DNA of 64,000 bases from Candidatus Pacearchaeota archaeon (GCA_041654895.1 JBAZCR010000004.1:1188-65187), one strand, 5' to 3'; shown: positions 80 through 28,809, numbered from the stretch's first letter. Notes: generated from the letters alone by a model not told the origin. Numbers and translations: made by a program.

Positions 80-108
80 TTGACTTCACTGTCTACATGA
101 TGTATATT
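80..108 (+). promoter_or_regulatory. early promoter cassette copy 1
   Basis: TTGACT (80-85), 17 nt spacer, TATATT (103-108), then conserved leader AGTACTAGAGATTAAG...AAGGAG. Confidence 0.75.
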
Positions 109-151
109 AGTACTAGAGATTAAGGAAAACATTCAACACAAGGAGTACCAA

Positions 152-991
152 ATGTCCAGATCAATGATAACCAACACCAAAGTAAAATGTGAGATTGAGA
201 AACTCATTGAGATGTTCAAGAGCCCAGAGTCGTTGGAACTTGTTGCCAAAGGTATGTTCTCACGTGGTGCTAATATTCCATCTGATAATTGGTCATATCT
301 CAATCGCATTATTATGTTGTCTCATGGGTATACTGATGCTAGAGGCTTCAAGGCTTGGGGCAAGGTAGGTAGACAATGTAGTAAGGGTGGTTGTTTTTAT
401 ATTCTTGCTCCTAATCTGTTCAAGAAAAAGGTAGTCAACAAAAAGACTAATATTGAGGAAGAAAAGACTATCCTTGCTGGTTTCAGACCAATCCCTGTCT
501 GGCCTTTGGAAAATACTACTGGCAAAGAAGTCACTTATAAAGATCAAGATAAGATGCCTGACTTTATGGGAATTGAGATTGCAGAAAAATGGGGAATCAA
601 AATCACACAAGGATTTCAGAATCCATCATACTATGCTTACTATTCACCAATAAGAAAAGAAATCAAGATGGCTACTGCATCTCAGCAGACGTTCTTTCAC
701 GAACTTGCTCACGCTGCTGATGATAGATTGAATAAGAATCTCAAGGGTGGTCAGGACCCTATACAAGAAATTGTAGCAGAGACTTCTGCTGTTGTCCTTA
801 TGTCAATGTTAGGACTCAAGGCAGGAACTAAAAATGCTTATGATTATGTAAAACGCTATGCCAATCAGAGTGGTAAAGACCCTGCTGATTCCATCATTCC
901 ACTTATTAGTAGAATTGGTAAGATCATCAAGCTTATCCTTGATGAATCCGATTCATTGCAGAAGACCTATAAAAAGGTTGCTAAGAAATAA
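152..991 (+). CDS. ArdC-like antirestriction protein (ssDNA-binding-like N-terminus + HExxH metallopeptidase motif)
   Basis: AAGGAG RBS upstream; FFHELAHAADD contains HExxH; N-terminal YLNRIIM...GFKAWGKVGRQCSKG resembles the ArdC N domain (from memory). Confidence 0.5.
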   Translation: MSRSMITNTKVKCEIEKLIEMFKSPESLELVAKGMFSRGANIPSDNWSYLNRIIMLSHGYTDARGFKAWGKVGRQCSKGGCFYILAPNLFKKKVVNKKTNIEEEKTILAGFRPIPVWPLENTTGKEVTYKDQDKMPDFMGIEIAEKWGIKITQGFQNPSYYAYYSPIRKEIKMATASQQTFFHELAHAADDRLNKNLKGGQDPIQEIVAETSAVVLMSMLGLKAGTKNAYDYVKRYANQSGKDPADSIIPLISRIGKIIKLILDESDSLQKTYKKVAKK

Positions 992-1033
992 TCTCTGGGA
1001 AGTTTCGTTGAATGTACTTCCCACCCCCGAGGT

Positions 1034-1072
1034 CCGGAGAGTTTCGTTGAATGTACTCTCTGGATCTTTTTA
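1034..1072 (+). terminator. rho-independent terminator (second of two tandem hairpins)
   Basis: 9-bp stem CCGGAGAGT/ACTCTCTGG (one G-U), 12-nt loop, then ATCTTTTTA; first hairpin is at 997-1022. Confidence 0.55.
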
Positions 1073-1081
1073 TATATTCGC

Positions 1082-1110
1082 TTGACTTCACTGTCTACAT
1101 GATGTATATT
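1082..1110 (+). promoter_or_regulatory. early promoter cassette copy 2
   Basis: TTGACT 1082-1087, 17 nt, TATATT 1105-1110, same leader as copy 1. Confidence 0.75.
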
Positions 1111-1156
1111 AGTACTAGAGATTAAGAGAACAAACATTTAACATAAGGAGTTTTAA

Positions 1157-1393
1157 ATGACTAAGAAAATCGATATACATATAACTAGATTTTATAATCT
1201 TAATATCCCTGAGGCTTGGATTGAAGTGACGGATAGAAAGACTTTTGATTCTTTTATCATTACCATTAAAAAAGATGGTGTTGATATAGAGTTCTCTAGT
1301 GACTCAGGGTCTAGGTCTTATTTCTTCTTTAATGATTTTGAACTACTTGATACTATTGCTCTACTCAGAAAAGAAATGTCAGAACTTGCTTGA
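1157..1393 (+). CDS. hypothetical early protein
   Basis: AAGGAG RBS; follows promoter copy 2; a degenerate copy of its 3' part lies at 2272-2400. Confidence 0.6.
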   Translation: MTKKIDIHITRFYNLNIPEAWIEVTDRKTFDSFIITIKKDGVDIEFSSDSGSRSYFFFNDFELLDTIALLRKEMSELA

Positions 1394-1418
1394 CTTCACT
1401 GCTACCAAGATGTATATT
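1390..1418 (+). promoter_or_regulatory. early promoter cassette copy 3
   Basis: TTGACT 1390-1395, 17 nt, TATATT 1413-1418; overlaps the stop of the preceding ORF. Confidence 0.75.
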
Positions 1419-1463
1419 AGTACTAGAGATTAAGAGAACAAACATTTAACAAAGGATTTAAAG

Positions 1464-1751
1464 ATGAGTTTTTTTGAAATGTTCATAATGGTTTTGGTTG
1501 TTTTCATAGTAGGACTATTTATCATAAGGACTCTTTGGTCACTGCTTCCCCTGTTGATTGTACTGACTCTGGTTGTCCTTGTTGCCTGGGGATTATATAA
1601 GGCACCCTCGGTATATAATGGCATTGTGAACTGGAGTAAGAATACTGTTAAGGGAACAATAGAATTTATAGAGACTAAACATAATGAGACTACAGAAGAT
1701 GATATCATAAATCTTATTAACTCCACAAAAGAAAGATTCCCAAAGAAATAA
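1464..1751 (+). CDS. small membrane protein
   Basis: Two long hydrophobic stretches (MVLVVFIVGLFII, LLPLLIVLTLVVLVAWGL); follows promoter copy 3. Confidence 0.6.
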   Translation: MSFFEMFIMVLVVFIVGLFIIRTLWSLLPLLIVLTLVVLVAWGLYKAPSVYNGIVNWSKNTVKGTIEFIETKHNETTEDDIINLINSTKERFPKK

Positions 1752-1873
1752 TCATCATGGACAACCAAGATAAAATCAAACATGCAAAATTAAGAGGTGG
1801 TAGACCAACTACCCCACACAAAAATAAGAAACAATACAACAGAAAAAAAGAAAAGAAAAGACTAAATTCAGAC

Positions 1874-1902
1874 TTGACTTCACTGCTTGCATAATATATA
1901 TT
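1874..1902 (+). promoter_or_regulatory. early promoter cassette copy 4
   Basis: TTGACT 1874-1879, 17 nt, TATATT 1897-1902. Confidence 0.75.
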
Positions 1903-1947
1903 AGTACTAGAGATTAAGAGAGTAAACATTCAACAAAGGAAGTATAA

Positions 1948-2256
1948 ATGGAAACCAAAGATGTAAACCTTGATACTGCTATTTTTGTCGCTGAATTGGT
2001 GATTGACATCTTTGAAAAAGAGTTCCCAGAAGACAAACGGCCTCGGAACGCAATCAAGGCAGCACGAGAATATTTATCTAATAAAGATAATACGGCTGCT
2101 CGTGCGGCTGTTGATGAGGCGACTGATATGGCGGCTGATGCGGCACGTGATGTGGCTGCTTATGCAGTTTGTGCGGCTGATCCGGCTCGTGTGAATGATG
2201 CGGCTGACGCGGTGGCTTATGTGTCTCGGTTGATGCGGATTATACAAAAATCATAA
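1948..2256 (+). CDS. Ala/Asp-rich helical protein, Imm-5-like; paralog of 9669..10043
   Basis: EDKRPRNAIKAAREYL followed by an ARAAVDEA...AADAARD helix pattern; local GC far above the genome (37/60 in 2101-2160); family name from memory. Confidence 0.5.
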   Translation: METKDVNLDTAIFVAELVIDIFEKEFPEDKRPRNAIKAAREYLSNKDNTAARAAVDEATDMAADAARDVAAYAVCAADPARVNDAADAVAYVSRLMRIIQKS

Positions 2257-2271
2257 ATTATGGCCTGTCAT

Positions 2272-2400
2272 CATTAAAAAAGATTGGGTTGGTATAGAGT
2301 TCCCAAGTGTTCAGGGTCCAGGGCTTGTTTCTTCATCGATGATTTTGAACTAATAGATACTATCAATACCCTGAAAAAAGAAGTACAAGAAATTGCTTGA
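2272..2400 (+). pseudogene. degenerate partial duplicate of the 3' part of ORF 1157..1393
   Basis: Aligns base-for-base by eye with about 1264-1393, with substitutions and a 1-nt deletion; no start codon; ends in promoter copy 5. Confidence 0.6.
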
Positions 2401-2425
2401 CTTCACTGCCACCAAGATGTATATT
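2397..2425 (+). promoter_or_regulatory. early promoter cassette copy 5 (short-leader variant)
   Basis: TTGACT 2397-2402, 17 nt, TATATT 2420-2425; leader is AGTACTACATTCAACAAA. Confidence 0.7.
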
Positions 2426-2499
2426 AGTACTACATTCAACAAAAGATGTTATTGATAATGTTATTGAACACCCAACATATTCTAACAAATGAGGTATTG

Positions 2500-2967
2500 A
2501 TGAAAACCGAAATAAGAAAAGTTCCTAAACAGAAAGTAATTGAGGATGGATTTGAAGATAAAGAAATTTATATTGCTTATGATGGAAGAGAATTTGATTC
2601 AAAGGATCAAGCAATTAAATATGAAGATGTTTTAAATTTTAAAAAGGAATTTATAAAAAAATATTCATATTCAACAATGGAACTAGATGATCGATATCAC
2701 ATACTTCACATGGATAATGATTCACACTTAAATAGAAATAACAGATTGATTCGGCATGAATTAAGAAACGAATTGAGACAATTCTTTGGGAATTATACAG
2801 GATCAAGGTTTGACATTGAAAAACTAAAAAAAGGATGGAATTTCATTGTTGACAATGAAACTTATGTTAGTATTACATATCCAAGTGAATTAATTACATT
2901 ATATGAAAAAGAAATTAAATTGAATAAAAAATACATTGAACAGATATCCAATCATATTAATCAATAA
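2500..2967 (+). CDS. hypothetical protein
   Basis: ATG at 2500 preceded by GAGG; the track ORF starts earlier at 2446. Confidence 0.55.
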   Translation: MKTEIRKVPKQKVIEDGFEDKEIYIAYDGREFDSKDQAIKYEDVLNFKKEFIKKYSYSTMELDDRYHILHMDNDSHLNRNNRLIRHELRNELRQFFGNYTGSRFDIEKLKKGWNFIVDNETYVSITYPSELITLYEKEIKLNKKYIEQISNHINQ

Positions 2968-2977
2968 TGGGAGTTAA

Positions 2978-3103
2978 ATGAAGGTATCACAAGATATATA
3001 TAAAATGTGTAAACAGATGTTTAGTGTTTTGGAAATAGAATCTTTTGATTGTCTTGATGAATTAGTAATTGATAATATAAAGGAGGTAAAATGTATATCG
3101 TAA
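2978..3103 (+). CDS. small hypothetical protein (41 aa)
   Basis: Hand-translated; GGGAG RBS; below the track length cutoff. Confidence 0.3.
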   Translation: MKVSQDIYKMCKQMFSVLEIESFDCLDELVIDNIKEVKCIS

Positions 3104-3234
3104 TCGAAACTTTCCCCATACAATACGCTCATATAGTACTTGATGAAGACGGAGAACCAAAACTATTCCTCACTCTTGAAGAAGCTGAGAAAGAAAAATC
3201 AGAACTTCACGATGGAAAGATTGTTGAACTATGA
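3091..3234 (+). CDS. small hypothetical protein (47 aa)
   Basis: Hand-translated; strong AAGGAGG RBS 5 nt upstream of the ATG. Confidence 0.4.
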   Translation: MYIVIETFPIQYAHIVLDEDGEPKLFLTLEEAEKEKSELHDGKIVEL

Positions 3235-3423
3235 AACATACAAAAGATAAACAACAAAAGAAACTCGCTATACAGATCATATAAGCAAAGAGTCTACACC
3301 AAACGATCTCATCTAGATAATGCTCATATAAAGAATGTGTGGATACAATATATTATAATATTACACTGATAGAAAGATGTATATTATAGTACTACACTGA
3401 AAAAAAGATGTACTAGAAATTGC

Positions 3424-3452
3424 TTGACTTCACTGCCACCAAGATGTATATT
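3424..3452 (+). promoter_or_regulatory. early promoter cassette copy 6
   Basis: TTGACT 3424-3429, 17 nt, TATATT 3447-3452; partial degenerate promoter fragments lie just upstream (3370-3420). Confidence 0.75.
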
Positions 3453-3481
3453 AGTACTAGAGATTAAGAAAGGAGTTTGAT

Positions 3482-4540
3482 ATGTTTATTACGTTTACTA
3501 AAATTAGAGATTATAAGTCTATTATTGGGGATATCATTCATACAGCAAGATTTGTTGGAATTGATGAGTCTGGTGAACCTATGTATGATAATGATAAAGA
3601 ACTTCCAACACTTACTTTTACTGGCACTTGTAAGCTTCATGGTACTAATGCCAGTGTAGTTCGTTCTCCTAATGGAGACATTTATTTTCAGAGTCGTAGG
3701 GCTGTAATAACACCAATGAAGGACAATGCTGGATTTGCTTTTTTTGCAAAGAGTAATGAATCTATTTTTAATGATTTTTTTGATAAGATCGTTGATAGAT
3801 ATAAAGATTCGAGTGACAAACACATTGCAATTTTTGGTGAATGGTGTGGTGGTAATATTCAGAAGGGAGTTGCAATTTCTGGATTACCTAAGATGTTTGT
3901 AATCTTTGCAGTTAAACTTTCCGAAGAAATTGATGGAGAGATGGTATCTGAATATTTACCAAATCAGTTTTGGAAAGATTTAAATTTTCCAGAATTTAAT
4001 ATTTATAACATTTATGATTTTAAGACTTATAGTATTGATATTGATTTTAATACTCCAAAATATTTTATTAATAAGTTAGTAGAATATACACTTGAAGTCG
4101 AAGATAAGTGTCCTGTTGGGACTCATTTTGGTCGTAGTAGTATTAATGGAGACAATGTAACTGGAGAAGGGATTGTTTGGGAGACTTGGTATAAAGGTAA
4201 TCGGATTATCTTTAAGACTAAGGGTGAAAAACATTCTAGCTCTAAGGTCAAGAAGATTGTTTCAGTAGATACCGAAAAATTAGATTCTATTATGGAATTT
4301 ATTGATTATTCAGTTACCGAGAATCGTTTAAACCAGGCAATTGAACAGGTATTTACTATTAGATCAGTTGAGCCTCATAAGAAACATACTGGGGATTTTA
4401 TTAAATGGATTCATAATGATATTATTGAGGAAGAGTCTGATGTTCTGAATGCAAATGGTTTAGAGTATAAGGATGTTAATAAGGAAATATCTATTAAAGC
4501 AAAAAATTGGTTTTTCAAATATCTCGATTCATTAATTTAA
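3482..4540 (+). CDS. RNA ligase (Rnl2/DraRnl-type nucleotidyltransferase)
   Basis: Motif I KLHGTN, FGEWCGGNIQKG, motif IV EGIVWE, motif V FKTKG. Confidence 0.7.
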   Translation: MFITFTKIRDYKSIIGDIIHTARFVGIDESGEPMYDNDKELPTLTFTGTCKLHGTNASVVRSPNGDIYFQSRRAVITPMKDNAGFAFFAKSNESIFNDFFDKIVDRYKDSSDKHIAIFGEWCGGNIQKGVAISGLPKMFVIFAVKLSEEIDGEMVSEYLPNQFWKDLNFPEFNIYNIYDFKTYSIDIDFNTPKYFINKLVEYTLEVEDKCPVGTHFGRSSINGDNVTGEGIVWETWYKGNRIIFKTKGEKHSSSKVKKIVSVDTEKLDSIMEFIDYSVTENRLNQAIEQVFTIRSVEPHKKHTGDFIKWIHNDIIEEESDVLNANGLEYKDVNKEISIKAKNWFFKYLDSLI

Positions 4541-4596
4541 AGGAGTATTCATACGATGGAACAAGAAAAGAAAATATATAAAATAAAATAAAAGAC

Positions 4597-4625
4597 TTGA
4601 CTTCACTGTCTACATGATGTATATT
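4597..4625 (+). promoter_or_regulatory. early promoter cassette copy 7 (short-leader variant)
   Basis: TTGACT 4597-4602, 17 nt, TATATT 4620-4625; only a 7-codon ORF follows. Confidence 0.7.
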
Positions 4626-4910
4626 AGTACTACATTCAACAAAGGAAGTTCAAGTATGTATAAACCATTATCAGTTTAAGAGGTACTACCCATCTGATCT
4701 TAAATAAAAGGTATTAGTAATTGACTACGGGTATCTGATATCTAATATAAGGAATCCTGTAGTCTCTTCTGTTCTCTCATATGTATATAGAGTAATATAG
4801 GGCAGTACTAAGGGAACTGGTATATGATTATAGGGGACTAGGGGTATATTTGAAAAGCTTGGGATATGTATATATGGGGGACTTTAGGGTATTATCGTAG
4901 GGGGTCATGA

Positions 4911-5083
4911 AAAATTTCCAGAAAATTTTTTGAGTCTTCTGAGAATGAGGTTACATATTTTTTGTTTTTTGATTTTGTTTAAATTTGGGAAAGGTAAAAA
5001 GTTTTGGAAAATAGTGATATAAACGTATATTATTACGTGCATAAAATTTCCAGAAAAATTTTTTTTACTTCTAAGAATGAGGT
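4911..5083 (+). repeat. two 41-bp direct repeats (4911-4951, 5043-5083)
   Basis: AAAATTTCCAGAAAA(A)TTTTTT..CTTCT.AGAATGAGGT occurs twice; each copy contains an A/T-only 8-bp palindromic arm pair. Confidence 0.7.
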
Positions 5084-5403
5084 ATGTATTTGTAGGGAGA
5101 GTGATCGAATTGTTTCTCGTATAACAGATTCATTGGTTAATTCTTTTCACATGTGAGTATATCGGGATTATATATTGGATAGATTCGTTTAGGTATCAGC
5201 CCTATATAGTGTGTGTCGGACTCTTTTGTTTGAGAAGAGTACTCGTAGGATAATATCTAATATATTGCAGAAGAGTTTATGGATAAGGTATATTATTTAG
5301 TTTTATATTTGGACAATGATGATAATATGGGTATGTTGGGATAGTATATATGTCAACTATACTGAAAAGAAGATTTAGTAAACCTATACGAAAAAGAGGA
5401 TAT

Positions 5404-6120
5404 ATGATATATTTAACTGGAGATATACACGGAAGTTTTGATATACATAAATTAAGTTCTGATTATTTTCCTGATGGAAAGAATTTAACTAAGTCCGATT
5501 ATCTGATTATTTTGGGTGATTTTGGATTAGTATGGAAGAGATATCCATCAGATGACGAAAAGTATTGGTTAAATTGGTTAAGTAATAAGCCTTGGACTAC
5601 ATTAGTGGTGCCTGGGAATCACGAAAATTGGGATTTGATTTATGAATTGCCTGAGGAGGAAAAATTTGGTTCAAGGATTCGTAAGGTCAATGATTCTGTA
5701 TATATGTTTAATCGTGGAGAAATTTATACCATAGATGGTTCTACTTTTTTCACAATGGGTGGAGCTTATAGTATAGATAAGTTGCAACGAACCGCAGGTA
5801 TGACTTGGTGGGATCGGGAGCAGCCATCATATTCTGAATATATGTATGGTTTAGATAATTTGGAAAAGAATGGATGGAAAGTGGATTATATTTTAGGTCA
5901 TACTTGTCCAAAGAGTGTAGCGAATGAGTATTGTAATATTCATACATTAAGCAAAGATTTATTACATAAGTGTTTTGTAATGAAATATTTTGATGAAGTG
6001 GTGAGTAAGACTAAGTTTAAAGCTTTTTATTTTGGTCATTGGCACGATGATATGGAGTTATCCTTAAATGATAACCGATATATTATGATGTATTATGGGA
6101 TTAAAAAATTAGGGGATTAA
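5404..6120 (+). CDS. calcineurin-like metallophosphoesterase
   Basis: GDIHG, GDFG, GNHENW and GHWH motifs; ATG at 5404 preceded by AGAGGA (track start is 5350). Confidence 0.75.
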   Translation: MIYLTGDIHGSFDIHKLSSDYFPDGKNLTKSDYLIILGDFGLVWKRYPSDDEKYWLNWLSNKPWTTLVVPGNHENWDLIYELPEEEKFGSRIRKVNDSVYMFNRGEIYTIDGSTFFTMGGAYSIDKLQRTAGMTWWDREQPSYSEYMYGLDNLEKNGWKVDYILGHTCPKSVANEYCNIHTLSKDLLHKCFVMKYFDEVVSKTKFKAFYFGHWHDDMELSLNDNRYIMMYYGIKKLGD

Positions 6121-6127
6121 AAAATGC

Positions 6128-6156
6128 TTGACTTCATTAGTTCCATTAATTATATT
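6128..6156 (+). promoter_or_regulatory. early promoter copy 8 (divergent leader)
   Basis: TTGACT 6128-6133, 17 nt, TATATT 6151-6156. Confidence 0.65.
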
Positions 6157-6201
6157 AAAGGTATGAATTGAAGTTAAAACCTTAAACATAAGGAGTCACG
6201 T

Positions 6202-8692: not shown

Positions 8693-9091
8693 TTATTTCG
8701 ATTTTTTCTGTACATACTCATGGGGAATTGCTTTAAGATTTTTTAGTTGATTCTTTAATTGTGCATTAATAGATTCGATATTTTTTCTTGTTGCTGATTC
8801 CATTTCAGATTCTAATTCTTTATTAATATTTATACTTTCTTGAATATCAGAATGTATTTTCAATAAATCTTGTTTAAGTATTACTAAATGTTGAGAAGTC
8901 TTATGGATTTTTTCTATATTCTCAGACAACCGTTTAGTAATATTATTTTGTCTATCATAAATTGTTTGATTTACTTGAGCAAATTTACCAATTAAATATC
9001 CTAAAGAATTAATCGATTGATTAAAATGTCTAAGTATAAAAAACAATACCAAAATTAAAACAGAAAGTAATGCAACTCCAACATAAAACAT
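8693..9091 (-). CDS. membrane-anchored coiled-coil protein
   Basis: N-terminal hydrophobic helix; AAGGAG RBS. Confidence 0.5.
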   Translation of the reverse strand: MFYVGVALLSVLILVLFFILRHFNQSINSLGYLIGKFAQVNQTIYDRQNNITKRLSENIEKIHKTSQHLVILKQDLLKIHSDIQESININKELESEMESATRKNIESINAQLKNQLKNLKAIPHEYVQKKSK

Positions 9092-9366
9092 TATAAACTC
9101 CTTTCAAACACCAAACGGGTCTTGTTCATTATATATTTTTTCAATATCTTCTTTTGGAATGGTTTTAACTTTATCTTGCTCTGTTCAATACCAATTGGAG
9201 AAAAATCTGTTCCATCAAATATTGATGCAAGAATAGCTGGAGAGAATCCAGAAACCAATGCAACATTATTCTTTAATGCAGTTTCAGGAGAACCTGTTTT
9301 AGAGAAGAGTTCTATTGCGTGATTTTTTGAATGTTCGTGTTGAGTAGTGCCTTCGTGAGTATACAT
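9091..9366 (-). CDS. hypothetical protein
   Basis: GGAGG RBS. Confidence 0.45.
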   Translation of the reverse strand: MYTHEGTTQHEHSKNHAIELFSKTGSPETALKNNVALVSGFSPAILASIFDGTDFSPIGIEQSKIKLKPFQKKILKKYIMNKTRLVFERSL

Positions 9367-9441
9367 AATAAACCTCCATAATTTTTAATTCTCAATGTCA
9401 CGTATATAATATAATAAATCTATATAAAAAACAAGTCTTTT

Positions 9442-9648
9442 TTATTTATTTTTATAATATTGCAAAACTGCTTTTTCGAAATTTGGAATTTTTTTATTAT
9501 CATAAAAAGGATCATTTTCTGTTCCTGTTATTTTATCATAAAGTTCTTTATTAATTCCGTTTAATACAATCATCATTGCTTGACCTTTTCTAAGATCAAA
9601 TCTACGTCTACGTATTAGTTCTTTCGAAGCATCTCGAATATCTAACAA
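9442..9648 (-). CDS. hypothetical protein
   Basis: ORF only; TTG start in the track. Confidence 0.35.
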   Translation of the reverse strand: MLDIRDASKELIRRRRFDLRKGQAMMIVLNGINKELYDKITGTENDPFYDNKKIPNFEKAVLQYYKNK

Positions 9649-9668
9649 TACCGTAGATATATCTATAT

Positions 9669-10043
9669 TTATGATTTTTGTATAATCCGCATCAACCGAG
9701 ATACATAAGCCACCGCATCAGCCGCATCATTCACACGAGCCGGATCAGCAGCACAAACTGCATAAGCCGCCACTTCACGTGCCGCATCAGCAGCCGCATC
9801 AGCAGCCGCATCAACAGCCGCACGAGCCGTCGCATCGTCTTTATTCAATAAATATTCTCGCGCTGTTTTGATTGCATCTCGTGGACGTTTATCTTCCGGA
9901 AACTCTTTTTCAAAAATGTCAATCGCCGAATCGGCGATCGCCAATTTGGTGACAAAAATAGCAGTATCAAGGTTTACATCTTTGGTTTCCATCTCATTTT
10001 CAAAAAGACTTGTTTTTTCTGTTAAATATTTAATATAAGACAT
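9669..10043 (-). CDS. Ala/Asp-rich helical protein, Imm-5-like; inverted paralog of 1948..2256
   Basis: Protein nearly identical to 1948..2256 over about 100 aa; same GC-rich DNA on the opposite strand; AGGAG RBS. Confidence 0.5.
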   Translation of the reverse strand: MSYIKYLTEKTSLFENEMETKDVNLDTAIFVTKLAIADSAIDIFEKEFPEDKRPRDAIKTAREYLLNKDDATARAAVDAAADAAADAAREVAAYAVCAADPARVNDAADAVAYVSRLMRIIQKS

Positions 10044-10198
10044 TTAGATTCTCCTAATATTTATATTTTATTTTTAATAAAGTGTAAGACATTAATAATT
10101 TCTGATTTATTGATAAAACCATCATTAATGTCTTTAATAACTTTATTAATATCATCTTTAGAATATAGTTACAAAAAGTATTGAAAAATGTGAAATAT

Positions 10199-11248
10199 TC
10201 ATTTTACATTTTCTTTCGTGGTAGAGGGACTATAAACTCCTCGATGTAGTATATTAACTGAGGCATTAAAGTCTGCATCAGTTTTATATCCACAATTTAG
10301 ACACAAGAATTTTTCGTTTGAGCGATTATTCCTATGAACAAATCCACATTTACTACAGGTCTGTGATGTATATGCAGGATTTACCGTAAGGTAATTAACT
10401 GCATTTTCTTCACAGTGATGTAATAGTTTATTCAAAACCTTTGAATAAGACCATCTTTGTAATTTATTATTGAATTTTTTATTTATTTTACCTTTAGATT
10501 TATGTTTAACATTTTTTAAATCTTCGACGACAATAGTTTTTATGTTGTCAATATCAAGTTTATTTACGGATTCATTTATTTTATTATCTCTTTCTATAAG
10601 GGTTCTTTTGAATCTTTTACTTCCTTGTTTCTTTCTTGATATCTTTTCATAAACTTTTTCAAGACCTGTATCATAAACTTTATTCTCTGAGGATATTAGT
10701 AACTTTTTATATCCACAATCCAAACCAATATCTTTTCCCTCTGTTTTTGTTTCTGGAGATTCCTTTTCAAAGTAAAAATCAACATAATAATTATCCTCAA
10801 ACTTCCTCAATCTTATTGATTTCTTTAAGGACCAATCATTGTATTTGTGATAATGTTTATGTTTCTTTGAAGGTAACTTTAAGGATATTTTGTTGCCTAT
10901 TGAGGATAACTTAACCCAAACATCAAAACTGTTATTGTTAAATTGAATATCAACAAACCTCGAATCAAGATTTATAACATCCGATTTAAATATAGGCATT
11001 GTCTTTTTCTTCTTCTTTCTTTGTGACTTTACTATCTCCAATGCCTGTTTACCCAGACATTGTTGCATCCTTGAGGATAACCACGTCTCAACCTTAAAAT
11101 CAACAAACTTAGATACAAAATTCTTCCGTTTCCATAATGACTCTATATAAAGATTAACTACTCTTCTTGATTCCTCAAATACAGAATCAAGAGATTCTAA
11201 TTTACCTCTATTACCGTAAGATATATTCATTTGACTTCTACGTATCAT
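10199..11248 (-). CDS. tnpB: TnpB-like RuvC nuclease (compact, about 350 aa), no adjacent TnpA
   Basis: RuvC-I GLDCGYKK, VVEDLKNV, zinc ribbon CSKCG...CLNCG, DADFNASVNIL; first ATG at 11248 (track TTG at 11275). Confidence 0.8.
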   Translation of the reverse strand: MIRRSQMNISYGNRGKLESLDSVFEESRRVVNLYIESLWKRKNFVSKFVDFKVETWLSSRMQQCLGKQALEIVKSQRKKKKKTMPIFKSDVINLDSRFVDIQFNNNSFDVWVKLSSIGNKISLKLPSKKHKHYHKYNDWSLKKSIRLRKFEDNYYVDFYFEKESPETKTEGKDIGLDCGYKKLLISSENKVYDTGLEKVYEKISRKKQGSKRFKRTLIERDNKINESVNKLDIDNIKTIVVEDLKNVKHKSKGKINKKFNNKLQRWSYSKVLNKLLHHCEENAVNYLTVNPAYTSQTCSKCGFVHRNNRSNEKFLCLNCGYKTDADFNASVNILHRGVYSPSTTKENVK

Positions 11249-11460
11249 TATGTCATCCAAATAAAAAAAGGTCAATTAAAGAGATAACGGTGAGCAACGA
11301 TACTCGACTCTTTAATGACCTATAATATTCTTCTTCATTTTCGTTGATGGGACCGTTATATCCCTCAATTGTATTTATATATTGTCTATTCATAATTACC
11401 AAACTTTTTAAATTATTTTAACATATTCTTTACATATTTTTCAATAAATATTTAAATCTT

Positions 11461-11586
11461 TATAATACTATTTTTACATCCTTTAAGTATTCATTTCTTG
11501 CAGTATTTAGAATTTTTCTTGCTTCCGAAATAGTTATTTCGTCAGGGTCATCTTCTAAATCATCTAGATATTCTAAAAAACTCATA
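11461..11586 (-). CDS. small acidic hypothetical protein (41 aa)
   Basis: Hand-translated; GAGGTG RBS. Confidence 0.35.
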
Positions 11587-11596
11587 GCATCACCTC

Positions 11597-12055
11597 TTAG
11601 ATAATTTCTTCCATTTCTTTTATTGTAGGAAGAATATTTTTAATTGCTGTTTCTACTTTCCAAGCAAGTTCTACTATTTTAGCATCTTCGTGTTCTGATA
11701 ATCCATCTGCCCATTTAGCAACTTCTTGTGCCATTGTATAATGCTTTGCCCAATCTGGGTCAACATCCATTGCCTCTGTTGCATCTACGTCATCCGTTTC
11801 TTCATCTTCAACATCTTCTTCTTCATCTTCAACATCTTCTTCTTCATCTTCAACATCTTCCGACATATATTTAGATGCTGATTCAATCATGTGTTTTGTT
11901 GCAACAGTATGTGGATTTAACATATCAAAAGCTTCTCCCTCAGTGATACAAAGATCATTTGCAAGTCTAGTTGTAGCTTGAGATAAATTAATAGATTTTT
12001 CTTGAACAAGAGAAACATAGTAATTCAAATATTCTGTTTTCTTTTTGTCATTCAT
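11597..12055 (-). CDS. acidic repeat protein
   Basis: EDVEDEE x3, encoded by a 21-bp tandem repeat at 11801-11863; AAGGAG RBS. Confidence 0.55.
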   Translation of the reverse strand: MNDKKKTEYLNYYVSLVQEKSINLSQATTRLANDLCITEGEAFDMLNPHTVATKHMIESASKYMSEDVEDEEEDVEDEEEDVEDEETDDVDATEAMDVDPDWAKHYTMAQEVAKWADGLSEHEDAKIVELAWKVETAIKNILPTIKEMEEII

Positions 12056-12392
12056 CGTTATTCTCCTTTTTATTTTTACGAGGTCTTCCTCTTCTATGTG
12101 TTACTTTAGGTTTTACATCTTCAATTTCCTCGGAAACTTTTTCTTCAATGATTTCTTCTTTTACATCTTCAATTTCCTCGGAAACTTTTTCTTCAATGAT
12201 TTCTTCTTTTACATCTTCAATTTCCTCGGAAACTTTTTCTTCAATGATTTCTTCTTTTACATCTTCAATTGGTTTTACTTTTTTATAATTTCTATCAACA
12301 ATACCCAATCTTTTTTTAAGAATTTCTAATTTATCAGAACTCATCCCTTTGTTTTTATAGTGATTAAATATTTTCATATTTTTTTTATTCAT
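12048..12392 (-). CDS. repeat protein with basic GRP (AT-hook-like) C-terminus
   Basis: 16-aa unit EEIIEEKVSEEIEDVK x3.4; C-terminal HRRGRPRKNKK. Confidence 0.55.
   Translation of the reverse strand: MNKKNMKIFNHYKNKGMSSDKLEILKKRLGIVDRNYKKVKPIEDVKEEIIEEKVSEEIEDVKEEIIEEKVSEEIEDVKEEIIEEKVSEEIEDVKPKVTHRRGRPRKNKKENNDE
12111..12272. repeat. 48-bp tandem repeat, 3 full copies plus a partial one
   Basis: Identical units at 12111, 12159 and 12207, partial from 12255. Confidence 0.9.
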
Positions 12393-12405
12393 TACAACTC
12401 CTTTT

Positions 12406-13671
12406 TTAATATCTACCCATTCCTAAAATAGCATTTACTGGAGCAAATGTACCAGTAAGTTTATATACTTTATTTCCGAACATAAAAGTAATACCTTCTG
12501 TCGGAACTATATTCTCTAATCCACCTATTTGTTCTAATCTATTTAGTTCATATTCTAATTTATCTATATCTTTTTGTGATAGATCATCTCTATCCTTTAA
12601 TGTATTTATATGTTTTGATAAATTATCCTTAATTCTTTTAAGTGATTTATCAGGATTTAATGCTAAAAACTGTTTCATATTTTTCAATATAGTAACACCT
12701 AAGTCAAGAAATAATAATTCAAAAGGTTTAACTGAAGTTTTTTGCATAGACGCTAATTTATTTTTATCAAAGTTATCCATCCAAACAACAAACTCATTTG
12801 AATCTATTAATTCTTTAATCATAGAAATAGTTATAGATTTTTTATTTTCTGACCATCTATCTACTAATAATTGTAATGCTTCATCTGACAATTTCGTCTC
12901 AAACTCAGATGCAATTTTAGTAATATAATTTCTCCACCATTCTTTTTTATAATCTAATAATGTATTGGTATCTGATAAATCATACTTATTTAATACCCTA
13001 TTAATTTTATTAAAAAATTTATCTTGTTGTTCTTTAAAATCTACTATCTTTAATCCTTGGATATCGTGTGGAGGTCTTAATCTAAAATGTGATTGAACTG
13101 CATTATTAGTTTCTTGAATTATTTTAAACATTTCTCTTGCAGAATCTTTATCTTCTCCAATAGCATTTCCATCCATATCATATTCAATTACTCCGTGTGG
13201 GACTAACAATGATGCATCGTAAGGTATTACATTTTCTGTTTGTGGATAAATTACCTCAACAGACATAAATTTCTTACCATCTTCAAATATATTATTTACT
13301 GTTTCATCAGGCAATGCCCCAATAGCAGATTGTAAATCTTTAAATGCGTATGTAAACGCATCTTGTATTTCACCTCTACCATCAAACATTTTAGTGATTC
13401 CATCTAAATCTAAAGAATTTGCTCCTTGATTTTTAATATGACCTTTATTTCTAGCAGCTCTTAGTTTACCATTTTTCCAAGTAATCATAATATTTTGACC
13501 ATCGGTTTTTTCTTGTGTGGTTTTAAGATCGCCTGTTAGTGTTTTTGTTATCATCTCTTTCATCTCACCAAAGGTTAAATCATTATCCTCAAATGGATGT
13601 AACAAATGACCATATCCTCCACCCTCAACCAATAAAGAATCTTCAATATGATAGTATTCATAAAATTTCAT
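12406..13671 (-). CDS. putative ligase-like nucleotidyltransferase
   Basis: EKTDGQN fits the covalent nucleotidyltransferase motif I (KxDG); the rest is unassigned. Confidence 0.4.
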   Translation of the reverse strand: MKFYEYYHIEDSLLVEGGGYGHLLHPFEDNDLTFGEMKEMITKTLTGDLKTTQEKTDGQNIMITWKNGKLRAARNKGHIKNQGANSLDLDGITKMFDGRGEIQDAFTYAFKDLQSAIGALPDETVNNIFEDGKKFMSVEVIYPQTENVIPYDASLLVPHGVIEYDMDGNAIGEDKDSAREMFKIIQETNNAVQSHFRLRPPHDIQGLKIVDFKEQQDKFFNKINRVLNKYDLSDTNTLLDYKKEWWRNYITKIASEFETKLSDEALQLLVDRWSENKKSITISMIKELIDSNEFVVWMDNFDKNKLASMQKTSVKPFELLFLDLGVTILKNMKQFLALNPDKSLKRIKDNLSKHINTLKDRDDLSQKDIDKLEYELNRLEQIGGLENIVPTEGITFMFGNKVYKLTGTFAPVNAILGMGRY

Positions 13672-18088: not shown

Positions 18089-18327
18089 AATCAAACTCCT
18101 TTTTTAAGTTAAACAGATTTACGTTTACATTCTACTTTAGTTTTTGGAACTAAAAATTTTGCTTCTTCTGGATCTTCTGTTGTTTCATCATCTTCTCCAA
18201 GTTCATCTAAAAAAAATAATATGTAATTTTTTCTTTACTCCACATTTTGTATTTATAGTTCTAATAACTTCATAATTATCATCATAATCTTTTCTATTAC
18301 ATATTATTCCATCAACAGTTAGATATT

Positions 18328-19677
18328 TCATGTACAAATATACAACATGATGTTGCTATTGACAGAAAATAACCTTAAAGAATTCCCAGAGAATTTATCT
18401 TTGGAAAAAAGAAACCTATAACTGGATTTAGATTTCTTAAAAACATTATATAGGTCAATCCATGATTTAATATTGTTTAGGTTATTCTTTAGTGTTTTCT
18501 TCCAATGATCATCTAAAGAACCAATATTAAATTCTGGGAAAACTATATCTTGTTTTGGTAATGATTTTTCTTTATATATTTTGTTAAATAAATATCCTCT
18601 TCTTGATAACTCAATTGATGCACCAACAGAATCAATATCTTTAGGATTATTAATTTGACCTATAAAAGATGAATATTGAGGTGCAACCTCCTGATGCCTT
18701 ATGTTCTCTATGTTACATCTCTTAATTAAGTTCTGAATAAAAGGTTGTCTTAACCAATTATTATTTACTAATTTATTAAACCTCTTGCCCTTTTTATGAT
18801 TTTGACTCTTCATGTTTAACTTCTCAAAACATACAAGATCACAATTATAATGTTTAACAAGATTGATAATATATTTGGAAACATTAAAAACCTCATGTTT
18901 TCTTTTGTTGTTTACCTTAATCTTTCTTTTGTCCGTTGATGGTAATCCACGAACATCTATATCATTTATGTCCTTAAAGGATATTATTTCCTTATGTATA
19001 ACTTCTTTATTGTCTTGATCCCTCCAATCTATTATGGATAAACCAATATAGTTTGGATTTAAATCAAATGACAAAATCCTATCCTTAATAACTTCTCTCT
19101 CTTCTTTACAAACTAAAGTTTCATCAATGATGATATAAACATAATCATTATTGATTTCTATTGAAAAACAACCTTTATTCTCCTCAGATAATATCTGTAC
19201 CTTACTTAATATTGACTTCTGATTCTTATTCATTCTTGGTAATTGAACCCGTATATGAGTCTCTTTATTTAACTTTAGTAATATTGAATTGTCCTCTATG
19301 ATTCTTAATTCACATTTTCTATTACCTTTATTATCTGATTTGGAACCCCTCAACATTAATGGTTCATTCCTTAACTTCTTATATTCATCTTTAGATATTA
19401 AATTCCTACATCTTTTTATGAAGTTACCATAACCACCAAAAACTATTCCTTTATCATTACTCTTACCTTTGGCCTTATTTACTGCAACCTTTATTAATGA
19501 GGCATCAAGAAAATTTATATTATTCATTTTTGACTTAACCAACTTCTCCACATCAGACAAGGATAATGTTTTATCATCTATAAATCTATTATAGGAAAAC
19601 CTTATTACGTTATTAAACTCCCTTACGTAATCTCCTATATCAATATCATTCTGTATCTTAAATTTATATGTTACCAT
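18328..19677 (-). CDS. tnpB: TnpB-like RuvC nuclease, IS607-type, lacking the CxxC zinc ribbon
   Basis: SFDLNPNYIG (RuvC-I), VCFEKLN, PQYSSFIGQ...DSVGASIELSRRG; no cysteine pairs near the C-terminus. Confidence 0.7.
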   Translation of the reverse strand: MVTYKFKIQNDIDIGDYVREFNNVIRFSYNRFIDDKTLSLSDVEKLVKSKMNNINFLDASLIKVAVNKAKGKSNDKGIVFGGYGNFIKRCRNLISKDEYKKLRNEPLMLRGSKSDNKGNRKCELRIIEDNSILLKLNKETHIRVQLPRMNKNQKSILSKVQILSEENKGCFSIEINNDYVYIIIDETLVCKEEREVIKDRILSFDLNPNYIGLSIIDWRDQDNKEVIHKEIISFKDINDIDVRGLPSTDKRKIKVNNKRKHEVFNVSKYIINLVKHYNCDLVCFEKLNMKSQNHKKGKRFNKLVNNNWLRQPFIQNLIKRCNIENIRHQEVAPQYSSFIGQINNPKDIDSVGASIELSRRGYLFNKIYKEKSLPKQDIVFPEFNIGSLDDHWKKTLKNNLNNIKSWIDLYNVFKKSKSSYRFLFSKDKFSGNSLRLFSVNSNIMLYICT

Positions 19678-20239
19678 TATCAATTTGTTCCTTAATTTTT
19701 TTCGCCTTATTGTATCCTCTTCGTAATCCATATAATCTACAACAAAAAGAAGTTATAATTGAAACTAAATCTTTTAGTAAATCCTTTTCATCTTCTTGAT
19801 CTTTATTCATAACCTCAATTTGACATCCTATTTTATTAAGTAATCTTTCAATATAATTAAAACCAAATCTTGTTAATCTATCCTTATGTTCTATAATTAT
19901 AATAGAAGGATTTGAATCTATCATTTTCCATAATTCTTTTCTATTATCATTCATTCCAGAGGCAACTTCTTTGTAAACCTTTTCTATTGAATATCCTTTT
20001 GTATTAGAATACTCTATACATCTATTAACTTGATACTCCATTTCTTCTTTTCTTGAATGATTACTTACCCGACAATAAACAACTATCTTATTTTTAATAT
20101 CTTTAGATTCTTTATCTACTAATATAGTACCTGTCCTTAATTGTCTTGAGTTTGGTATTAACCCTTCTTTAAACCATCTATACGCGGTTCTATAACAAAC
20201 TCCCTGTTCTTTAGCATAATCTGACAATTTCATATTCAT
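19664..20239 (-). CDS. tnpA: IS607-type serine recombinase TnpA
   Basis: N-terminal HTH (YRTAYRWFKEG), catalytic VYCRVSN, IIEHKDRLTRFG. Confidence 0.8.
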   Translation of the reverse strand: MNMKLSDYAKEQGVCYRTAYRWFKEGLIPNSRQLRTGTILVDKESKDIKNKIVVYCRVSNHSRKEEMEYQVNRCIEYSNTKGYSIEKVYKEVASGMNDNRKELWKMIDSNPSIIIIEHKDRLTRFGFNYIERLLNKIGCQIEVMNKDQEDEKDLLKDLVSIITSFCCRLYGLRRGYNKAKKIKEQIDNGNI

Positions 20240-28760: not shown

Positions 28761-28809
28761 AAATAACCTCCTCATAATAATATTTTTATTACCGGAAGTA
28801 TTTATATAT

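Follow-up and report, generated by a model that had tools for sequence, protein, structure and literature searches.

A probable transposase-less IS607-family TnpB/omega RNA element on a T4-like phage contig

Introduction

Few known genes are as common as solo tnpB genes accompanied by omega RNAs, and the locus considered here, in which such a gene is flanked by hairpins and borders an Imm5-like gene on a phage contig, raises the question of what kind of element it belongs to, whether its nuclease and guide RNA are still intact, and how it could spread without a transposase of its own. The sequence analysed (referred to as the window) is a stretch of 64,000 nucleotides deposited under Candidatus Pacearchaeota archaeon (GCA_041654895.1 JBAZCR010000004.1:1188-65187). 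All coordinates are counted from its first letter, and the features discussed are collected in Table 1. An earlier note on this DNA had read the gene as a TnpB-only unit that could be domesticated or the remnant of a homing gene, and its individual claims are taken up where the corresponding results are presented.

Table 1. Coordinates of the features discussed, with the basis on which each was placed.
Feature	Position	Strand	Basis or remark
tnpB coding sequence, 349 aa	10199-11248	minus	stop TGA 10201-10199; start chosen from homologues
Omega RNA scaffold	10165-10281	minus	overlaps tnpB 3' end; conservation and covariation
SL1 stem-loop	10244-10222	minus	inside codons for HRGVYSPS
Pseudoknot	SL1 loop ATAGT 10233-10229 with terminal ACTAT 10169-10165	minus	complementarity
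SL0, tentative stem	10281-10258	minus	over DADxNA codons
Second hairpin, predicted, variable	~10219-10171	minus	fold prediction; precedes terminus
Predicted guide segment ATTCTAAAGATGATAT(TAAT)	10145-10164	minus	flank right after scaffold end; inferred
Left end and non-coding leader	11249-11393	minus	left boundary placed within 11380-11393
TATATAAATAC motif	11381-11371	minus	start of L109 homology
Hairpin A	11368-11344	minus	leader fold
Hairpin B	11320-11270	minus	13/14-bp stem, then T-run 11269-11263 (TTTTTTTATTT)
8-bp repeat TTAAAGAG/CTCTTTAA	11315-11308 and 11283-11276	minus	core of hairpin B
11-bp inverted repeat AAGACATTAAT/ATTAATGTCTT	10086-10096 and 10124-10134		27-nt loop
Imm5-like gene	9669-10043	minus	PF21805, E 7e-6; outside the element
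Separate IS607-type element	18328-20239	minus	8.4 kb from the tnpB element of the window
tnpA of the separate IS607 element	19664-20239	minus	PF00239; NF033518 transpos_IS607, 177 bits
Divergent 467-aa tnpB-like gene of the separate element	18328-19731	minus	

Results

The tnpB gene resides on a phage contig

The contig is that of a T4-like bacteriophage. It encodes a DNA polymerase, a DnaB-like helicase, a UvsX-like recombinase, an SbcC-like nuclease and a ribonucleotide reductase, together with a tRNA array, a tmRNA and a GOLLD RNA, and carries repeated TTGACT-17-TATATT promoters of a sigma-70-like kind. This gene content bears out the earlier suggestion of a TnpB-only unit in a phage. The 755-kb assembly to which the contig was assigned yields a 16S sequence that scores 1302 bits with the archaeal model and 1027 bits with the bacterial one, and belongs to a family with genomes of 0.4-1.4 Mb; the phage contig (C4) was probably mis-binned with this archaeal assembly by base composition. 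Eleven short contigs, with a G+C content of 39-58%, look foreign to the assembly core, which has 26% G+C. Comparison of positions 9000-12500 with 50,697 phage records by megablast retrieved no related phage, and neither IMG/VR nor 150 genomes of the family to which the bin belongs contained the neighbouring 421-aa protein.

The TnpB nuclease appears functional

The open reading frame listed for tnpB spans 10199-11275 and opens at a TTG codon. Since 37 homologues in the family alignment start with MIRRxQxNISY, the ATG at 11248 was taken as the true start, which results in a protein of 349 aa, in agreement with the length of about 350 aa given previously. The RuvC triad is formed by D177 (GLDCG), E242 (VVEDL) and D326 (DADFNA), and the CxxC..CxxC zinc ribbon by C298, C301, C316 and C319. 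None of these seven residues varies in an alignment of 38 family sequences, which confirms that both motifs are intact and, on the proper alignment that had been called for, reveals no inactivating substitution in the RuvC residues. In a family profile search, the motifs containing E242 and D326 line up with their Cas12f counterparts.

PF07282 (TNB zinc-ribbon domain) is the sole Pfam domain identified in the protein (E 7e-19, 68 bits, cut-off 26.3), and the NCBIfam model NF040570 (guided_TnpB) is matched with 109.2 bits against a cut-off of 100. A profile built from the TnpB family matches both Cas12f and TnpB structures. Structure prediction, which had been proposed as a further check, points the same way: the AlphaFold (AF2) model of the window TnpB (pLDDT 81.7) was found by Foldseek to share the Cas12f/TnpB fold over its full length, the top matches being AsCas12f (E 3e-15), ISFba1 TnpB (1e-13) and ISDra2 TnpB (2e-11).

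Comparison of tnpB with its four closest loci gave dN values of 0.12-0.19 at saturated dS, corresponding to a dN/dS of ~0.1, and the gene is, as judged from these codon changes, under purifying selection. Its 349 codons are uninterrupted in a genome of 29% G+C, in which stop codons come often. Based on the profile matches, the fold, the invariant residues and the dN/dS of ~0.1, the nuclease of the window appears functional. The ribosome-binding site of the gene, GGATGA, is weak, the counterpart in the relative L109 being AAGGAG, and the element is present as a single copy in the 755-kb assembly.

Many relatives of the gene are partnered with serine recombinases

A total of 1225 metagenomic homologues of the window TnpB were retrieved, the best of which are 60-81% identical, and 243 stretches on IMG/VR viral contigs were confirmed as members of the clade. 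A same-strand ORF of ~190 aa, representing a serine recombinase with a PF00239 resolvase domain, overlaps the start of tnpB in 19 of 80 IMG/VR loci. An overlapping recombinase is also present in the close relatives L110 (74% identical), L111 and L113, the three spanning 69-74%, and the relatives in which a serine-recombinase TnpA adjoins or overlaps tnpB comprise L004, L005, L031, L110, L111 and L113. A Y1 transposase was found beside none of the relatives examined, the partner being a serine recombinase in every case. These overlapping partners assign the clade to the IS607 type and not to IS200/IS605, and the idea that the flanking hairpins represent IS200/IS605-type ends is consequently abandoned. 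The window TnpB scores 33 bits with NF038280 (IS607_TnpB; cut-off 350) and 56 bits with NF038281 (IS200_TnpB; cut-off 425).

Among the relatives tnpA is encountered in successive stages of decay, being split in L112, reduced to a stop-ridden pseudogene in L114, and absent from L107, L109 and the window. No trace of tnpA was detected in the 133-nt leader of the window copy by blastn and blastx against the tnpA genes of relatives. Since the gene is gone here and kept in relatives, the window copy is a non-autonomous derivative. The earlier statement that no transposase is located nearby therefore holds for the element itself, but not for its surroundings, as an IS607 tnpA (19664-20239) lies 8.4 kb away. 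In L115 (68% identical; 1821-2042), as well as in L116 and L118, tnpA is cut to a 73-aa MerR-like HTH ORF that overlaps tnpB; this HTH-domain remnant extends across L115-118, and that of L115 could be a repressor-like remnant.

Units of ~1.2 kb that are devoid of tnpA occur in multiple copies inside single genomes or phage contigs, as is the case for L134/L135 (94% identical), L066/L068 (93%) and L025/L027/L035. In view of these copy numbers, the solo units of the clade evidently still propagate. L066 and L068 are located 5.7 kb apart on a 429-kb jumbo-phage contig (IMGVR_UViG_3300025030_000039), each having a left end of only ~12 nt and ~11 nt downstream of the stop codon; one of their right junctions reads AACTAT followed by ATAAATAA and lies beside a TATAAATA motif. 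Within the 150 genomes of the bin's family, the search for the clade retrieved distant TnpBs only (best E 1e-32).

A conserved omega RNA terminates at the right end of the element

The omega RNA scaffold is mostly made up of the last ~120 nt of the tnpB ORF, to which 34 nt downstream of the stop codon are added, and its conserved span amounts to ~80-120 nt. Across 40 loci, 97.9% of the cells of SL1 are paired and compensatory changes are observed in 6 of its 7 pairs, a degree of pairing that no shuffled or slid control approaches. As read from the alignment, the amino acids encoded at SL1 change in such a way that the stem stays paired. The pseudoknot between the SL1 loop and the scaffold terminus is 97.5% paired in the same number of loci, with the linked variants ACAGT/ACTGT and ATGGT/ACCAT. 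SL0 is moderately supported, its pairing being 77% versus ~30% in slid controls, and the second hairpin differs in placement between the window and its nearest relatives and aligns unreliably. Judging by these comparisons, both the stem and the pseudoknot are intact and conserved in the window copy. The tnpB strand matched no Rfam family, RAGATH-18 included, either at the gathering threshold or at E values up to 10, and the best Rfam match, RsaF, is located on the opposite strand and below threshold.

Homology between the window and L107-L110 runs 34 nt past the stop codon and ceases after a sequence ending in TTTTTGTAACTAT. In 63 of 109 clade loci AACTAT is present within ~100 nt of the stop codon and is followed by unrelated sequence, while in the multi-copy relatives L134/L135 the right boundary falls exactly after AACTAT. 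The right end of the window element is therefore at 10165, where the scaffold terminates in GTAACTAT, and because the homology of the relatives stops at this point the guide is predicted to begin at 10164. The predicted target of this guide reads ATTCTAAAGATGATATTAAT, and its transposon-adjacent motif would be expected to end in AT and to depart from AACTAT at position -4. The search for guide targets that had been recommended was unproductive, in that no second exact occurrence (0 mismatches) was found in the window or in the 755-kb assembly, and there is no CRISPR-like array or alternative guide near tnpB.

The left end carries a structured leader

The 133-nt leader is 75% identical to that of L109, which is another solo copy and is found in an unrelated context; the leader is considered non-coding because frame-breaking indels separate the two sequences. 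Its fold has a z score of -3.0, and hairpins A and B are preserved by 5 compensatory pairs in a comparison that involves two sequences only (the window and L109). The 8-bp repeat previously reported upstream of the gene exists where it was described, yet it is only part of a 13/14-bp terminator-like hairpin (hairpin B). Because it is positioned ahead of the start codon and behind a putative promoter, this hairpin might keep tnpB expression low, and the leader may function in termination or attenuation. A search of IMG/VR with a conserved 15-mer of the leader returned 118 chance matches, none of them with the full hairpin beside tnpB.

In L107, L110, L111 and L112 the TATATAAATAC motif of the left end is likewise present, at 24-56 nt before tnpA or tnpB, and it also precedes the IS607 tnpA of the window itself. 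Six copies of this 11-mer are distributed over the contig, all on the minus strand, whereas ~0.7 would be expected from composition according to our own estimate; they are located at 28806, 27282, 20263, 16480, 11379 and, on the side of a right end, 18257. Several copies directly precede a ribosome-binding site and start codon. From its sequence and placement, TATATAAATAC resembles, and is a candidate for, a T4-type late promoter class that differs from the TTGACT-17-TATATT cassettes at 80-6157.

The left boundary of the element is known only to within 11380-11393, a segment in which ATAGACA (11389-11383) agrees with a motif that is terminal or repeated at the left ends of relatives, and is similar to the right terminus in reverse complement. 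Left junctions of multi-copy relatives begin with AT. The GG core and the G-rich transposon-adjacent motif (TAM) are not seen at the clade ends, which read AACTAT on the right and AT on the left, and these ends point to an AT core for the clade.

Features in the vicinity lie outside the element

An 11-bp inverted repeat downstream of tnpB had been noted at the place where the omega RNA or right end was expected. The repeat exists, with a loop of 27 nt, and forms a stable hairpin (-14.9 kcal/mol, z -4.6; 0 of 200 shuffles fold as well), but it corresponds to neither, since the element ends at 10165 and the repeat starts 30 nt beyond that position, in the phage flank. Alignments of the relatives show that it is kept in none of their flanks, it is not followed by a T-run, and a terminator scan made no call there. 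It is situated upstream of the TATAAATA motif and ribosome-binding site of the Imm5-like gene, and may stop transcripts leaving the element.

The adjoining gene had been correctly recognised as Imm5-like (PF21805, Table 1) and is one half of an inverted pair with 1948-2256. What had been described as a 7.4-kb inverted duplication is, in reality, an inverted gene pair of ~330 bp (1948-2258 and 9667-9992), the members of which are 87-93% complementary and lie 7.4 kb apart. Inside the Imm5-like gene, CGATCGCCGATTCGGCGATTG (9920-9940, minus strand) forms a G+C-rich stem of 9 bp, which is the sole terminator-like site called in 9400-12100 and belongs to this unusually G+C-rich paralogue pair.

Between the TnpA of the separate IS607-type element and the TnpAs that partner the window TnpB clade, identity amounts to 41-46%, and the element could supply transposase in trans. 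In the sequence following its 467-aa tnpB-like gene (18150-18330), ..TTAGAACTAT followed by AAATAC is read ~100 nt downstream of the stop codon; this candidate right end has the same AACTAT terminus and abuts a TATAAATAC motif, with no matching ATAGT loop found upstream of it.

When the flanks of the tnpB element are joined (11381-11393 to 10164-10044), the sequence TAGACAAT is brought next to ATTCTAAAGATGATAT. This joined-flank pattern was absent from IMG/VR, so that no empty site was found there. Joining the flanks at 11381/10164 creates a 38-codon ORF, which was considered as an interrupted small gene and rejected, as its frame hinges on the crossover AT and a second frame is open; a homology search found no homologue of it. 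A near-copy of the joined flanks with 23 of 25 nt identical, TAGACAAATATGCTAAAGATGATAT, occurs in the same bin at G000:C9:6684-6706, within a 506-aa ORF resembling class-I lysyl-tRNA synthetase; the similarity ends at 25 nt, and a rough estimate puts the probability of such a match by chance at 1e-3 to 1e-4.

Discussion

Taking the above into account, the segment from 10165 to ~11380-11393 (minus strand, ~1.22 kb) is interpreted as a non-autonomous IS607-family TnpB/omega RNA element, to which we assign a probability of roughly 0.72. Its sequence shows an intact tnpB, preceded by a left end that carries the structured leader, and an omega RNA that overlaps the last ~120 nt of the gene. The family, the intact residues, the covarying stem and pseudoknot, the exact right end and the loss of the partner were all computed in the current work, and the TnpB/omega RNA unit has probably remained active. 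It cleanly exemplifies a type of selfish element that is already known and does not constitute a new kind of system.

The way in which such an element could work is inferred from ISDra2, ISFba1 and the Clostridium botulinum IS607 element (CboIStron). The tnpB transcript would be processed to an omega RNA in which ~16-20 nt of retained flank (ATTCTAAAGATGATAT..) form the guide, TnpB being able to process its own mRNA (PMC10278001). The resulting TnpB-RNA complex would cut DNA in which the target follows a TAM; donor joints are cleaved by IS607 TnpB, and the final TAM bases are the same as those at the end of the scaffold (PMC10690162). In this case, the DNA cut would be the element-free phage locus, either in a co-infecting relative or after excision, while the occupied locus would escape cutting, the TAM being replaced there by the end of the element itself. 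The UvsX-like and SbcC-like recombination genes of the phage, each located within the window, would subsequently copy the element into the break. To reach new sites the element would depend on a transposase supplied in trans, for which the IS607 TnpA 8.4 kb away is a possible candidate. Homing by TnpB between co-infecting phages independently of TnpA is a proposal so far (PMC13565253). The notion of a homing remnant in the earlier note fits what is known of TnpB as far as homing is concerned, but the word remnant does not, as no decay is seen in the ORF, in the omega RNA stem or in the pseudoknot. A tentative extension, possible but on balance doubtful, is that the solo units of the clade would be self-propagating RNA-guided homing genes of lytic T4-like phages, equipped with their own late-type promoter (TATAAATA), an attenuator leader and an AT core, and spreading between co-infecting phages without a transposase.

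Several other readings of the locus were weighed. The element could be an inert relic that landed once, lost its transposase and is too recent to have decayed, in which case no RNA-guided cutting would take place. Its single copy, the absence of tnpA in a clade where tnpA decay is seen, the weak GGATGA as compared to AAGGAG in L109, and the terminator-like hairpin just before the start of tnpB are all compatible with this reading, which is nevertheless unlikely given that 349 codons have stayed open in a genome of 29% G+C with frequent stops, that every catalytic and zinc residue is kept, that dN/dS is ~0.1, and that neither the SL1 stem nor its loop nor the ACTAT partner has been disrupted. 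The hypothesis that the hairpins are subterminal ends recognised by a Y1 transposase, with the 3' hairpin as omega RNA, in an element of the IS200/IS605 type, we consider highly improbable: hairpins do flank the gene and several homologues bear the JGI label 'IS605 OrfB family transposase', but this identity is contradicted by the partner of the relatives, which is always a serine recombinase and never Y1, by the position of the 3' hairpin outside the conserved right end, and by the NF038281 score of 56 bits against 425.

Domestication, in which the phage would keep TnpB as a weapon against competitors or cellular DNA and not for the spread of the element, is also very unlikely. In its favour, members of the clade are frequent on viral contigs, a further solo copy (L109) has kept the leader, and the joined flanks have the 23/25-nt near-match in the lysyl-tRNA synthetase gene of C9. 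Against this, the ends are transposon-like, the guide is plain adjacent flank as in any transposon copy, the catalytic residues show no loss of the TldR kind, the assembly contains no exact second target for the guide, and no CRISPR-like array or alternative guides lie nearby. Moreover, C9 is archaeal and the phage carries a tmRNA and sigma-70-like promoters, so that C9 is not the host expected for this phage, and the C9 sequence has a mismatch at guide position 3, which is TAM-proximal. Characterised TnpBs need the TAM-proximal stretch of the guide to be matched. The domestication claim of the earlier note is accordingly not retained, and the non-autonomous IS607-family element is the reading carried forward.

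With TnpBs of 339-350 aa, at the small end for this protein, and a scaffold of ~80-120 nt, the clade provides a candidate miniature editor. To our knowledge, every characterised IS607 TnpB has a GG core and a G-rich TAM, and an AT core, if confirmed, would extend the range of targets known for the IS607 branch. A phage of lytic type that possesses its own recombination genes and carries an intact solo copy is, in addition, a natural test bed for the TnpA-independent homing that has been proposed between co-infecting phages.

Among known systems, ISFba1 TnpB with its reRNA (PDB 8IAZ; PMC11061315) and the TnpB of the C. botulinum IStron (PMC10690162) are alike in having a compact RuvC and zinc-ribbon nuclease, a serine-recombinase TnpA that overlaps the start of tnpB (in the relatives of the window copy), and a pseudoknot-containing scaffold that shares sequence with the 3' end of the ORF and runs up to the right end, the guide being taken from the flank. 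Both TnpBs are, however, only ~20% identical in sequence to that of the window, and the window copy, unlike these elements, is without tnpA. Its omega RNA is not RAGATH-18, belongs to no Rfam family, and differs from the RNAs of ISFba1 and the IStron. Characterised IS607 elements have a GG core and the G-rich TAMs TGGG, AGGAG and GAGGG (PMC10690162, PMC11061315), whereas the clade of the window has a right end in ..AACTAT and a left end in AT. ISDra2 TnpB (IS200/IS605; PDB 8EXA, 8H1J) shares the enzyme family and a 3' omega RNA with the flank as guide, but is mobilised by a Y1 transposase acting on single-stranded hairpin ends, has a protein of 408 aa, and possesses an RNA unrelated in sequence. 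Cas12f (AsCas12f; PDB 7WJU, 8DZJ, 8J12) is the best structure and profile match, with RuvC and the TNB zinc ribbon in common, whereas here there is no CRISPR array, adaptation gene or tracrRNA, and the guide is fixed by the insertion site. The TldR proteins, which are nuclease-dead TnpB-derived repressors and in some cases phage-encoded, likewise represent transposase-less TnpB-derived genes in phages, but have lost the RuvC residues that are kept here (D177, E242 and D326). The free-standing Seg/Mob homing endonucleases of T4-like phages are similar in the lifestyle proposed, in which a nuclease gene located between phage genes cuts, on co-infection, the allele without it and is then copied by recombination; their fold is unrelated and the protein itself reads the target, whereas the target of the window TnpB would be read by an RNA guide. 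If the homing reading is true, the element would thus be an RNA-guided counterpart of the Seg/Mob endonucleases.
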